In this document: in pieces, positions 16,032 to 61,021 of the stretch
Layout of the letters: every line of letters begins with the position of its first letter
Position numbering within the stretch: position 1 is the first letter of the stretch
From: Eledone cirrhosa
Taxonomy: Eukaryota
Direction of reading: 5' to 3'
Length of the DNA stretch: 64,000 nt
Assembly (NCBI GenBank): GCA_964016885.1
Contig: OZ024742.1
Span: 240,684,001-240,748,000, forward strand
The notes under the pieces: generated by a model
What the model was told of the DNA's origin: nothing
Databases searched by the model: none
What the model saw: only the letters and a program-made list of their open reading frames with translations
Program-made: the position numbers and the translations under genes

Positions 16032-19000
16032 TATTGGTAAACGGAATAGAAAATGCTGACAAATTGTTCATAGTGAAAAATAGTTTAATTAGGAATAAGT
16101 GATAATTAGTAATAGTATTGGTTAGTATTAAGTTTTGGTTTTAAGTTTTACCGGTTGCGCATTTCTAATGCTTTTCAAAAATAATTTTGAGATAGAGCGT
16201 CCGTGATGTTTGCTCTGATCTGATTAGTTTTGGGAATTCTACCTGTTTTTATGTTAAAAAAGTGGCTCCAGCGGTATTAAAATAAGTTTTGCGCCAATTC
16301 GTGTTGCAAAAATTCTTGTGGTCAAAACAATTTTGATTGGTCGGTAGAGGTCATGTGAATGTAAAAAATTGATTTTGCGCCTAATGTAGGTTTGTGTCGG
16401 CTGACTGAGAAATAAGTCTAACAAATATGTGTGTGTGTGTAGTAGTAGTAGTAAAGAGGTTCGTTGTTGTGATAATGGTCAGCAGGGATGTGTGTGCGAA
16501 CCGCAGCCTGTTGACAGTTCAAATGCCTATTAAGACAAGTGTGTGTGTGTGTGTGTGTGTGTGTGTGTGTGTGTGTGTGTGTGTGTGTGTGTGTGTGTGT
16601 GTGTGTGTGTGTGTGTGTGTGTGTGTGTAGCAGAGTAATTCGTGGTAGAGGGATGGTCAGTAGGAATGTGTCTGTAAGTGTGTGGGGGATATTTTAACAT
16701 GTTAAAAGATATTTTTTCAGTTTTTGTCTTAGAAGTGTGTGTGTGTGTGTGTGTATGTCTCTTTGTATGTTAATGTACGCGTGTGTATGTGTGTGTGTAT
16801 ATATGTGTGTGTGTGAGAGAATGTGTGTGTCTGTGTGTGTGGATGGATCAGTATTTATTTCTGTTAAAATGGTGTACATTATTCGATATTTTCAGTAAAA
16901 TCGATTCTCTCAATAGAACATCAAAAACCTTAATAATAAAAGGTGTGAAATGATATATAGTATTGGCATAATACCAAGGTGTGTGTGAGTGTGTCCAGAC
17001 CGCACGTACTCCAAGGGGCTCCATTAGGCCTTGCCGTATTGGAATACCTGTGCACAAATATGTATCTGGAGTGTGTCCAAAAATTGTATACCCGTGCACA
17101 AATTGTATACCTGTGCACAAATTGTACACATGTATCTGGAGTGTGTCCAGAAATTGCATACCTGTGCACAAATATGTATCTGGAGTGTGTCCAGATAGTA
17201 CGTACTGCAAGGGGAACCCACTAGACCCGCCGTACCGGAACACCTGTGCACAAATATGTATGTGCCCATCAGTGTGCAATGCATGTGTGCGTTTATGTAT
17301 GTGTGTGTGTCGGCACGTTTATATCTATAGACATCAAAAGGTATGCAAATTTGTGTATATTTGTGTTGCACCATAGAACATGTGTGTTTACGTATGTCAT
17401 TGTGTTTATATGTGGGTAGAGATGTAATCTGATGTAAGTATGTACGTTGACGTGTGTATGTTGTGGGTTCGTCTTAGGGAGAAGTGTTTAGACGGGGTCC
17501 GTATTTGTTAATAAAGTAAGATTCCTTGCTGATGCGCTGGGTGTGGGTGGCATTATCTTTAAATTTGTAGAGGGGAAAGATTCTGAAGTTGGGATGATTT
17601 TGGGCGCCACAGGTATCAATGTGTTCACTCAGTGGTATTTTTCTGTATTCCCGTATTTTAATTTGGGATCTATGGACAGTCATGCGTTACGGAGGCTGTT
17701 TTTGGCCTGGCCTATGTATTGTTCTCGACAACCTGAGCAAGTTAATACATATATTAGATTTTCTGATGCGCATGTGAAATTGTGTTTTACTATAAAACGT
17801 TGTCCTTCTTTGAAATAGAATTCCGAACCCTCTATTAGGTTGATGCAAATGCCACAGTTGGGTCTATCGCATTTTTTTTACTGTGGATTTCGTTGTTGTG
17901 GTTGGCAGTACTTTGGCATGTGTTAGGATGTTTTTCATTGACTTAGATTGTCTTTTGCTCTTTATGATATCGTGTGTTCGTAGGATTTGGTTCATTCTAT
18001 GGTCCTTTTTCAACACAGGGATGTTCTGGAGGATGGTGTCAAAGGCCTCATTGTTGAGGGGGTTGTGTGTGGAGATGTATGGAAGAACTTTTAGTTTCAG
18101 TTGATTTACTTTAGGGTGTCTAAGGTCCTGGGTACTGAGTTTTAGGGCACGTTGGATTCCATTGTCAATTAGTGATGCAGGGTAGTCCCTGCCTATGAGT
18201 GTGTCCTTTAGTTCTTGTAGCCGTAAGTAGCAGGTGTTTTTATTGGAGATTATAGTACAGATTCTCTTGGCTAAGTTGTAGGGAATATTAATTTTAACGT
18301 GTCTAGGGTGGCAAGAGTTGAAAGGAAGATATTGCTTGGAGTCTGTGGGCTTGTAGTATATGTCTGTTTCTATTTTTTGTTATGGATCTTAATGAGGATG
18401 TCGAGGAAGGGGAGTTGTTGATGGTTGTATTCCATCGTGAAGTTAATGTTCGTGTTGAGCCCATTTATAAGGTGTGAAATTCTTTAAGTTTCTCGATGTT
18501 TTCGTGCCGAAGGATGAAGCAGTCATATAGATATCGCTTCCAGTTCCTTTCTATGTGTAAGTGGAGAGTGTTTCCAAATTTGTTTAGGACTTTAGTGTAG
18601 AGGGTGATTTCCAGGTATCCCATGACTAGGTTGGTATAAGTGGGGGCTGTTTTCGTTCCCATAGCGGTCCCAGATTTCTGCCTATATGGTTTGTTATTGA
18701 AAACGAAGTAATTGTTCTCCAAGATAAATTTGAGTCCCTCTATCACGAATTCTTTTTTGATGCGTTGTGGGAGTTCGTTGTGGTAATTATCCAGCCAGAA
18801 TCGGATAGCTTCTATTCCTAGGTTGTGGGGGATGTTGGAGTATAGGTTGACTACATCGAACATCACTAGTATGGTTTGTTCAGAAAGTGGCATATTAGGG
18901 AGGTGATTGAGCATATCTAGGTCGTCCCTTATATAGCTTTTGGTGTGTTTGAGAAAAGGCTTGAGAAGGGTATCAATGAAGTTGCTGAGGCGGTGGGTTT

Positions 19001-20492
19001 CGCAAGCGGGGCCTGCTATTATAGGTCTTAATTTGAGATCATTGGGTGAGGGGATCATTGATGACTATGTCTGTGGCTTCCTTGCATGCCTTACTTATTA
19101 ATTCGCTTTTATGTACTTTAGGGATACCGTAGAAAAGGCTGGATTTACTTGTGAAGTCTGTGATGAAACTGAATTCCTTGTTAGTGAGTCCTTCTTTGTA
19201 TTGGTTGATCAGAGTTTTTAGGTTTCTCATAATTTTCTGTTGATTGTAGTGTTCAGCCTTTTCGTAGTATGTTTCGTTTACCAAAGTGGAGAGCGCTAAG
19301 TTGATATAGAATTCTGTCTCCATTAGGACTACTGTACTCCCTTTATCAGCCTCTTTAATTGTAATGGTTCTGTCGGTTTTTAATCTATTTAATTCTTCCC
19401 ATTCTTTCTTGTTGAGGTTTGGCTTGTGTTTTTGTCTGTGAAAGTGTTGGTAAGGGAAGTTTGTGATGTGTTCACAGAATTCGTCCAGGATTTTATTTCT
19501 ACCCTTTGATGGGGTGTAATTGCTTCTATTTCTGGCTAATGATTCATCCTCATTGTACTGGTCGAATAGTTGTTCACTGAGTCGTAACTTTCTACAGAAG
19601 TCTGTGATGTCTTCCTTCATTTCATAGTAGTTAGGACGTAGTGGGGTCGGTTTGAATTTAAGACCTTTGGAGAGTAAGTTGATAAGGTTGGGTGTTGGTT
19701 CTGCACTAGTAAGATTGATAATTTTTATTACTATCGGTTTCCCTGTCTTGTGTTATTTTGTTTGCCTGTATCTGTGTGCTGTGTCTAAAAAATGGTTGGG
19801 GTAGAGGGGTTGTCTGCTGATGTTAAGTGGTCTCCTGTGTTTGTTATATTCCTTGTTGTTGTAAAATGTGGTTCGGGTTGGTGGTTGTAGATTGAATGGG
19901 GTGTTCCTGTACTGCGAGTATGGGTGTGTGTTTCTATGTGTCATGTTGGATTGTGGTGTTATAGGTGGCCTACGTTGTTGGTTGTATCGTGTGGTGTGGG
20001 TTTGTTGTGTATTGTGGAAGCGAGAGTTGAGAAAATGGAAATTACCTTGCTGTCCCCTTGAAGCGGGGAAGTTGTTACATCTAGTCAGCCGACACAAACC
20101 TACATTTGGCGCAAAATCAATTTTTTACATTCACATGACCTCTACCGACCAATCAAAATTGTTTTGACCACAAGAATTTTTGCAACACGAATTGGCGCAA
20201 AACTTATTTTAATACCGCTGGAGCCACTTTTTTAACATAAAAACAGGTAGAATTCCCAAAACTAATCAGATCAGAGCAAACATCACGGACGCTCTATCTC
20301 AAAATTAATTTTGAAAAGCATTAGAAATGCGCAACCGGTAAAACTTAAAACCAAAACTTAATACTAACCAATACTATTACTAATTATCACTTATTCCTAA
20401 TTAAACTATTTTTCACTGTGAACAATTTGTCAGCATTTTCTATTCCGTTTACCAATACATCATAACTTGTGTGTTACACCTCTATTCTTTTA
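16032..20492 (-). mobile_element. Penelope-like element (Neptune-like) with ~375-bp inverted termini, inserted in (TA)n
   Basis: 16032-16406 is inverted at 20084-20457; internal RT-GIY-YIG ORF remnants. Confidence 0.92.
17474..19745 (-). pseudogene. PLE RT plus Zn-knuckle plus GIY-YIG endonuclease, several frameshifts
   Basis: LLSKGLKFKPTP, IKEADKGSTVV, FYGIPKVHK, LRPIIAGP, FDVVNLYSNIPH, GTAMGTKTAP, RYLYDCF (YxDD mutated), CDRPNCGIC, NLIYVLTCSGCREQYIGQ. Confidence 0.92.
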
Positions 20493-20643
20493 AATATATA
20501 TATATATATATATATATATATATATATATATATATATATATATATATATATATATATATATATAACAAAGAAAGTGTGGTAAGAAACCAGGTGGACCATA
20601 ACCCACCAGAGTACTCGATACTTACGGTAGTAGAGTGGGTAAT

Positions 20644-20752
20644 AGGAAAAGAGTCAGGACCCCGACGGCTGAGCTCCGGCCGTTTCAACAGCGTTCGGAT
20701 GTAGCCGTCGAAACGGCCGGAGCTCAGCCGTCGGGGTCCTGACTCTTTTCCT
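20644..20752. repeat. GC-rich perfect inverted repeat (43-bp arms)
   Basis: 20644-20686 versus 20710-20752. Confidence 0.95.
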
Positions 20753-60365: not shown

Positions 60366-60565
60366 NNNNNNNNNNNNNNNNNNNNNNNNNNNNNNNNNNN
60401 NNNNNNNNNNNNNNNNNNNNNNNNNNNNNNNNNNNNNNNNNNNNNNNNNNNNNNNNNNNNNNNNNNNNNNNNNNNNNNNNNNNNNNNNNNNNNNNNNNNN
60501 NNNNNNNNNNNNNNNNNNNNNNNNNNNNNNNNNNNNNNNNNNNNNNNNNNNNNNNNNNNNNNNNN
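60366..60565. other. Assembly gap (200 N)
   Basis: N run. Confidence 1.
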
Positions 60566-60651
60566 ACTATAGGGAGGTGTGTAGGATACATACATACATA
60601 ATACATACACACGACACTCAGCTTTATAATATTATATATACATATATATAT

Positions 60652-61021
60652 ATAAGGAAATGGTAGTTTACTTGAAGCATTGTGTAGTGAGGTATAAACG
60701 TTTGTAGTTGTAAGGCCTAAACAATGCAGGTATGGATATAGAATATAAATACAAATGCAAAAGATATCGCTGACAATTAGACTTTTACCTTAAATTTATT
60801 TGAATATCCTTATATTTCGAGATAATATCTCTTCTTAGCTAATTAGAACACTGAATTAATCCCTTTACTTCCCTCTGAAGAAGAGATATTATCTCGAAAT
60901 ATAAGGATATTCAAATAAATTTAAGGTAAAAGACTAATTGTCAGTGATATCTTTTGCATTTGTATTTATATTCTATATCAATACTTGCATTGTTCTGGCC
61001 TTCTAACTTTAAACGTTTATA
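60652..61021. mobile_element. ORF-less fold-back relative of the 42229-45155 PLE termini
   Basis: Arms 60693-60837 and 60878-61021; homologous to 42242-42430. Confidence 0.85.
60872..60906 (+). ncRNA. Minimal type I hammerhead
   Basis: cct-CTGAAGA-a-gagat-att-atctc-GAAA-tATA^agg. Confidence 0.75.

Follow-up and report, generated by a model that had tools for sequence, protein, structure and literature searches.

Here, we identify the lopsided inverted ends of retroelements in a 64-kb stretch of Eledone cirrhosa DNA (contig OZ024742.1; the whole stretch is called the window) as the known tail of Penelope-like elements (PLEs) on inverted pseudo long terminal repeats (pLTRs), in several families. 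We suggest, at a probability of roughly 0.55, that both nicked target strands prime in two zones defined by the element and that short TA pairing picks the base. Both strands would prime reverse transcription on the element RNA, one primer starting just upstream of the start codon and the other about 25-30 nt into the open reading frame (ORF). Where the primer is (TA)n, its pairing with the RNA over 2-7 nt would probably set the exact start base, and the two resulting cDNAs would be joined head to head. The window is AT-rich DNA, dense in microsatellites and broken retroelements, and all end statistics come from it. Priming at both ends of one insertion, head-to-head cDNA joining and an overlap that acts at priming are what we infer. 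That each of the two strands is cut and then extended, and that the RNA offers two internal starts, is taken from the in vitro work of PMC11167929.

Penelope-like elements and the positions of their ends

Several observations identify the elements as PLEs and place their ends. First, the ORF between the arms of the family B element at 42231-45154 (Table 1) has profile matches to PF00078 (E 2.8e-10) and PF01541 (E 3e-5), both above the curated cut-offs, among 13 ORFs of the window scanned. Identity of this ORF to its best relatives is 35-44%; they carry ~140 or more extra N-terminal residues. The ORF has PSDKG (DKG), LGPKF (GxKF) and CDKC...EH...KH (nuclease CCHH) in conserved columns. Its sequence marks 42231-45154 as a 5'-truncated, endonuclease-positive (EN+) PLE, with any target-site duplication (TSD) masked by the flanking (TA)n. 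The Hydra clade, as defined in the accessible part of PMC8557442, was excluded for family B by the C-x4-C-P-x6-C, DKG and CCHH motifs of its relatives. The terminal 43-residue piece of P0029, a predicted ATPase-family protein, is 66% identical to the family B ORF and is probably a PLE fragment absorbed into the gene model.

Second, the tail holds the start of the ORF. The two arms of 42231-45154 are 97% identical over 163 nt, the inner limit of the left arm near 42490 resting on a 20-nt inverted match, and the tail, 40-44 nt in length and including the ORF start, is present at the left end only. In the fold-back at 60655-61021, the left arm likewise extends further, by 38-42 nt. As originally predicted, the right arms of both elements stop at AAACGTTTATA (45144-45154 and 61011-61021), and the arms of the two elements share just 77-80% identity. 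The insertions are apparently independent, judging from their different flanks and their divergence. The tails of four divergent family B long arms translate as MLQVNYNLL, MLQVNYHFL, MLQVNYKFL and MLQANFNTL, resembling the N-termini of related ORFs (MLLKVNF, MLLKANY and MLLERNF). Counted from the ATG, the ends of these four long arms fall at +26 to +28, whereas both short arms stop at the TATA at -16 to -13. An assembly gap of 200 N lies at about 60366-60565, ~90 nt to the left of the 60655 element.

Third, in family A the 16035 arm is shorter than the copy at 88 by 34 nt and than the arm at 20493 by 39 nt, close to the ~35 nt noted before. The ORF at 17475-19752 matches RVT_1 at E 9.8e-5, below the curated cut-off, and, as read across frames, a CX2-5CxxC linker (CDRPNCGIC) precedes IYVLTCSGC...YIGQ; 16035-20493 is a 5'-truncated PLE of the Neptune/Nematis type. 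The strict and relaxed hammerhead patterns found no hammerhead in family A, where the motif may be decayed or outside the pattern. An antisense match to MLFKNNFE in the family A arms was set aside as chance because the reverse transcriptase (RT) ORF fixes the opposite sense. A further PLE fragment, at 4537-5692 on the minus strand, has a C-x4-C-x2-C linker and GIY-YIG.

Fourth, the outer junctions are element 3' ends, as fixed by the orientation of the ORFs and the hammerheads. With the strict form of our own type-I sequence pattern, eight hammerhead-like motifs were found in the window versus 0.13 in 30 shuffles. In families B, C and D, the motifs point outward, and because they read toward the TA junction, each TA-abutting end is the 3' end of an element and the pairs stand head to head. 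The motif at 42423-42395 reads CCGA for CUGA, and the core at 60875 is canonical. By sequence, 60655-61021, 47061-47439 and 50598-50659 are non-coding derivatives of hammerhead-bearing families. Rfam returned no hammerhead, only chance microRNA-like hairpins, among the matches listed (150 of 296), and the 592-bp and 565-bp tandem units yielded no motif even in the relaxed scan. Two more hammerhead-like motifs lie at 49102-49140 and 12582-12631.

Family C is found in four different layouts. The copies at 47061 and 50598 share the start site TATTGTTAT.CTTTGGGAGG, as had been claimed, and this site is 56-60 nt inside the ends used at 31135, 47439, 48752 and 50659. The inner ends of the family C fold-back (47212-47223) lie ~7-11 nt downstream of the hammerhead cut predicted in the 30885 copy, as if copying of both arms had run almost to the 5' terminus of an RNA cleaved there; the inner ends of 60655-61021 do not have that relation to the predicted cut.

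The pairing of a full-terminus arm with a shorter arm that merges into (TA)n, which the original prediction had described, is borne out: every end that it named is present within 1-4 nt, the difference being the stretch that element and TA run have in common. A long end is paired with a short one in eight of the nine pairs in which a second copy confirms the long end, a tally that excludes the long ends at 13915, 20565, 31701 and 31866, which lack such a copy, and in 11 of 12 pairs in a wider tally.

Overlap with TA runs and end zones in TA-free relatives

To avoid hand-picked cases, all 182 TA runs of the window were taken, and 98 adjoining non-repetitive ends were kept after a low-complexity filter. 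A longer counterpart exists in the window for 19 of these 98 ends; two of them (30569 and 31717) were dropped as non-ends and three (32355, 50598 and 61017) were merged with sites already counted, leaving 14 distinct sites. The proposed coincidence of short ends with TA is statistically real in the window: the 14 sites together have 36 nt in common with their TA runs, versus 12.8 nt expected for random positions within the same arms (P = 1.9e-5). The overlap is 2-7 nt at nine sites and at least 4 nt at six, versus 0.56 expected. Without the three sites of the original prediction, P = 3.8e-4. For six further outward ends that did not pass the filter, the overlaps are 7, 4, 3, 5, 2 and 1 nt (the last becoming 7 nt with a phase slip), and the overlap is 0 at a 5'-truncation end at 12993. 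Long ends can overlap a TA run as well, as at 39399 (5 nt) and 47025-47031 (7 nt with a phase slip). Any homology-dependent joining, and not priming alone, would beat the random-position null. The excess is a modest addition to the literature, in which the long/short asymmetry itself is already published for PLEs.

A scan of public metagenome contigs gave 72 related loci (L-numbers, e.g., L021), with an inverted self-match in 18 and a (TA)5 run in only one, a scarcity that is partly an assembly bias. The ends of one related family are visible in 13 of the 72 loci. There, similarity breaks off either at -4 to -16 from the ATG (six distinct flanks) or at +15 to +30 (five distinct flanks). As alignment ends, these positions are accurate to within a few bases, and two of them come from matches of 82-89% identity. 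The end zones are thus placed as in the window. In L021 and L055/L056, where no TA repeat is present, the inverted arm is the long one and the sense arm the short one, and the pair is enclosed by shared words of 12 and 13 nt that would represent one event at staggered nicks. The same arms and end zones in TA-free relatives imply that the architecture belongs to the element and that (TA)n is not required. Which arm bears the tail is not fixed: it is the inverted arm in 42231, 20493, L021 and L055 and the main arm at 88 and in both tandem elements. Among the non-TA relatives, the positions of the short ends vary within a range of about 12 nt, and no common cut word is apparent. Two assemblies, at L021:5411 and L022:5941, have a common left arm and flank and different right ends; L022 there has the flank of L040, and its right end may be a mis-assembly or a recombinant.

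These data also divide the original prediction. Twin or internal priming by both nicked strands fits the head-to-head geometry and the in vitro PLE data (PMC11167929). The self-complementary (TA)n target as the cause of the asymmetry and of the many fold-backs does not stand, and was rejected, since the same long inverted and short sense arms occur at TA-free sites in L021 and L055/L056. Fixed ends with TSDs, as in DNA transposons, had been named as one refuting outcome, and this is half borne out: the end zones are indeed fixed relative to the start codon, yet the elements are retroelements, not DNA transposons.

The start-codon region may also be structured. In seven of seven folds of family B and its relatives (42231-42325, 60655-60745, 42118-42204, 41739-41825, L004, L011 and L021), it is predicted to pair with an upstream strand in a stem of 6-9 bp that encloses the short-end zone. 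The strands are GCAUUG/CAAUGC in the window and GCAGCA/UGCUGC and CAGUAG/CUACUG in the relatives, with apparent compensatory changes. Only one of the seven folds has z below -2, nine of 22 junctions (duplicates included) beat shuffles at P ≤ 0.014, and the stem is not in register in a MAFFT alignment; we regard a conserved start-codon stem as suggestive only. The hairpin word GAGTGCY, with 10 occurrences versus 6.0 expected, is not significantly enriched.

Two priming events weighed against other origins

Between the arms of the ORF-bearing copies lies an unmirrored sense-strand body and, therefore, two cDNAs are needed. Of the origins considered, only priming on both strands accounts for such bodies, and it agrees with the TSD-like words of the relatives and the in vitro chemistry.

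Several points weigh against this reading. Overlap with the TA run is zero at four of the 14 sites (15985, 20753, 25623 and 48651) and 1 nt at 41282; in L021 and L055/L056, the short end overlaps the target by just 1-2 nt. No more than three families use a site again, each with two ends, and the statistics are those of one window. In three pairs, the arms differ by 125-165 nt, beyond the published 30-40 nt. Near-perfect palindromes with spacers of 2-11 nt (47061, 14058, 31947 and 20644) are explained more simply by snap-back, and PMC3846280 proposed self-priming from junction palindromes. Finally, PMC8557442 considers the tail most likely to result from endonuclease-mediated resolution.

Snap-back assumes a single priming at the long (tail) site, after which the cDNA folds back and serves as its own template. 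The second end of the target would then capture the cDNA 3' end where the first TA microhomology is reached, before the tail is copied. Besides the palindromes, it explains the long and short pairing and the TA overlap of the short ends, and the long end at 30606, overlapping TA by only 2 nt, is as it expects. However, it fails for the unmirrored bodies of 2-3.7 kb in 42231-45154, 16035-20493, L021 and L055, in each of which the body itself terminates in the short 3' end. Short ends without an inverted partner (61580 and L011) and the TA overlap of the long ends at 39399 and 47025-47031 also speak against it, and overall we consider it unlikely. Sequence alone cannot separate pairing at a priming site from capture of a microhomology at the end of synthesis.

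In the resolution scenario, both ends would be long at first, and the TA-preferring endonuclease of the element would cut the intermediate at an internal TA on one side and remove the tail. PLE endonucleases prefer AT-rich DNA (PMC11167929), and cutting at TA would mimic microhomology. By contrast, the RT starts observed in vitro coincide with both genomic end positions (PMC11167929), and the short ends of the non-TA relatives are scattered without an evident common cut word, which makes this origin a rather improbable one.

Two further scenarios place the asymmetry outside the insertion event. If a symmetric insertion had later lost its tail by slippage between the internal TATA and the flanking (TA)n, TA overlap would be expected at every short end, and the long TA runs of the window do look unstable. 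Slippage should, however, give long and short pairs at most half the time, against the eight of nine (P ≤ 0.02) and 11 of 12 (P ≤ 0.003) observed, and asymmetry occurs also without a TA flank. On the excess of such pairs and the TA-free asymmetric relatives, we rejected this very improbable origin. The inverted arms, TA flanks and recurrent ends, together with one symmetric element with terminal inverted repeats (TIRs) at 62069-62165, would also fit miniature inverted-repeat transposable elements (MITEs), i.e., microsatellite-targeting DNA transposons with true TIRs and an asymmetry inherited from master copies. A ready-made asymmetric fold-back may even have moved as a unit in the case of 47061 and 50598. 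Against this, the arms flank RT/GIY-YIG ORFs and carry hammerhead motifs and the PLE start codon, family C has four layouts, and no transposase is among the 13 ORFs scanned. With RT partners and 11 of the 12 tallied pairs asymmetric, a MITE origin is hardly credible and was rejected; for families A, B, C and D the evidence already refutes most of it.

Returning to priming on both strands, a broader version can be put forward only tentatively. TA-targeting PLEs might use true twin priming, with a dimer cutting (TA)n on both strands and each primer pairing, through its TA end, with UA-rich RNA in one or the other of the two zones around a stem that sequesters the start codon. Inverted arms, tail and TA targeting would then be one mechanism, and the non-homologous start of Poseidon would not be general. 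If target pairing picks the start base, target choice, tail and inverted arms would be linked in TA-targeting PLEs, and the claim of homology-free initiation would be qualified. As a practical caution, many TA-flanked fold-backs in such genomes are retroelement ends and not MITEs.

Other features of the window and comparison with known systems

Table 1. Coordinates of the arms, ORFs and fold-backs in the window.
Feature	Position	Strand	Details
Family A 3' fragment	88..1366	-	Long end on sense arm
Family A short (sense) 3' arm	16035..16410	-	
Broken Neptune-type PLE ORF	17475..19752	-	KGLKF, ADKG, RT, C-x4-C-x2-C linker, GIY-YIG-like IYVLTCSGC...YIGQ
Family A long (inverted) arm	20080..20493	+	39 nt longer than 16035 arm
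Family C copy	30833..31135	+	Hammerhead motif 30885-30919; long end
Long + short fold-back	32200..32345	.	66 nt difference; long end as at 53 and 2428
565-bp tandem units	39399..40604	.	Inverted arm ~125 nt shorter; short site reused at 40639
Two divergent family-B-like arms, both long	41739..42204	.	Only pair with two long ends; tails MLQANF and MLQVNY
Family B long (inverted) pLTR arm	42231..42490	-	Hammerhead-like motif 42423-42395 and tail
Tail	42231..42270	-	12 nt leader and first ~9 ORF codons (MLQVNYNLL)
Internal TATA	42271..42274	.	-16 to -13 from start codon; merge point of short arms 45154 and 61021 into (TA)n
PLE ORF, 5'-truncated and frameshifted	42491..44601	+	RT and C-terminal GIY-YIG
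Family B short (sense) 3' arm, tail-less	44989..45154	+	~55-nt deletion takes out 5' half of hammerhead core
Three 592-bp tandem units	45214..47031	.	Inverted head, outer end ~165 nt shorter
Family C fold-back	47061..47439	.	Short arm 47061-47212, 10-nt spacer, long arm 47223-47439
Family C copy	48752..49047	-	Hammerhead motif 48998-48964; long end
Collapsed family C copy	50598..50659	.	Short and long ends as in 47061-47439
Non-coding family B fold-back	60655..61021	.	Long arm 60655-60836; short arm ~60878-61021; hammerhead motif 60875-60903
Family D tandem	61169..61587	+	Hammerhead motif 61413-61448; short end/TA overlap 7 nt; family long end at 30606

The 592-bp and 565-bp units are non-coding and are inserted in (TA)n in PLE fashion. 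Three fold-backs (31866-32008, 20565-20753 and 32200-32345) have a similar word, TACCCA(C/A)CTC, at or just before the short end. The symmetric TIR element at 62069-62165 is small, lies between TA runs, contrasts with the asymmetric pairs and is outside the 12-pair tally; we take it to resemble a Tc1/mariner-type MITE. At 40742-40911 the arrangement of the others is reversed: a palindrome of 170 bp there has a (TA)n run at its centre. Fragments of a long interspersed nuclear element (LINE) with a restriction-like endonuclease motif (RPDI..D) adjoin (TATG)n and (TA)n at 25694-29320 on the minus strand and resemble the microsatellite-targeting R4/Dong. At 8386-10971, a (GGT/GAT)n array of 2.6 kb lies on a strongly G-skewed strand.

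The closest likeness is to the EN+ PLEs of PMC3846280 and PMC8557442. As in the window, pLTRs stand head to head there, a one-ended tail extends into the first codons, palindromes occur at the inner junctions, the pLTRs carry hammerheads, a (TA)n bias masks the TSDs, and the tail may be on either arm. The 31-bp tail of Pen2a_Av is optional on one inverted pLTR and extends over the first codons of the ORF, with TSDs of 8-10 bp (PMC3846280), and a tail of 30-40 bp, often at one end only, is typical of PLEs, which show an insertion bias for (TA)n (PMC8557442). The latter source lists the origin of the tandem and inverted PLE structures and the preference for microsatellites as open questions. Unlike in the window, the tail-less end is not tied to target microhomology in the accessible parts of these sources, and some non-coding pairs here differ by 56-165 nt as opposed to 30-40. 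A search of titles and abstracts, mostly without subscription papers (e.g., Arkhipova 2006 and Pyatkov 2004), gave no PLE twin priming and no target microhomology at tail-less ends.

Non-coding units bearing hammerheads and linked to pLTRs are described in the accessible part of bioRxiv 10.64898/2026.07.22.740005 as animal non-LTR retrozymes, non-autonomous derivatives of PLEs. Families C and D resemble them as short tandem or monomeric non-coding units with a type I hammerhead related to pLTRs. By contrast, that part of the source does not treat inverted arms and end positions, the 592-/565-bp units yielded no hammerhead in the scans, and the C and D copies have single motifs rather than a type I hammerhead in two consecutive tandem units, by which retrozymes are recognized.

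Poseidon of Anolis carolinensis (PAc; PMC11167929) provides the biochemical counterpart. Its protein, a predicted dimer, cleaves and extends both target strands in vitro and favours AT-rich targets, and two internal RNA start sites, downstream of the hammerhead, bound the tail and equal both genomic end positions. As described there, the PAc starts lie in an AC-rich stem-loop and are non-homologous to the target, whereas 2-7 nt of TA overlap are present at nine of 14 sites here, and the elements of the window have a Cys linker before the nuclease.

In twin priming of the retrotransposon L1, short pairing lets the second nicked strand prime inside the RNA, and an inverted segment results. The piece that L1 inverts comes from further upstream in one RNA, without overlap, and synthesis begins at the poly(A). 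Here, by contrast, both arms copy one pLTR region and neither starts at the 3' tail of the RNA. Nevertheless, the geometry and the TSD-like words in the relatives appear compatible with two priming events on staggered nicks, in the manner of L1 twin priming.

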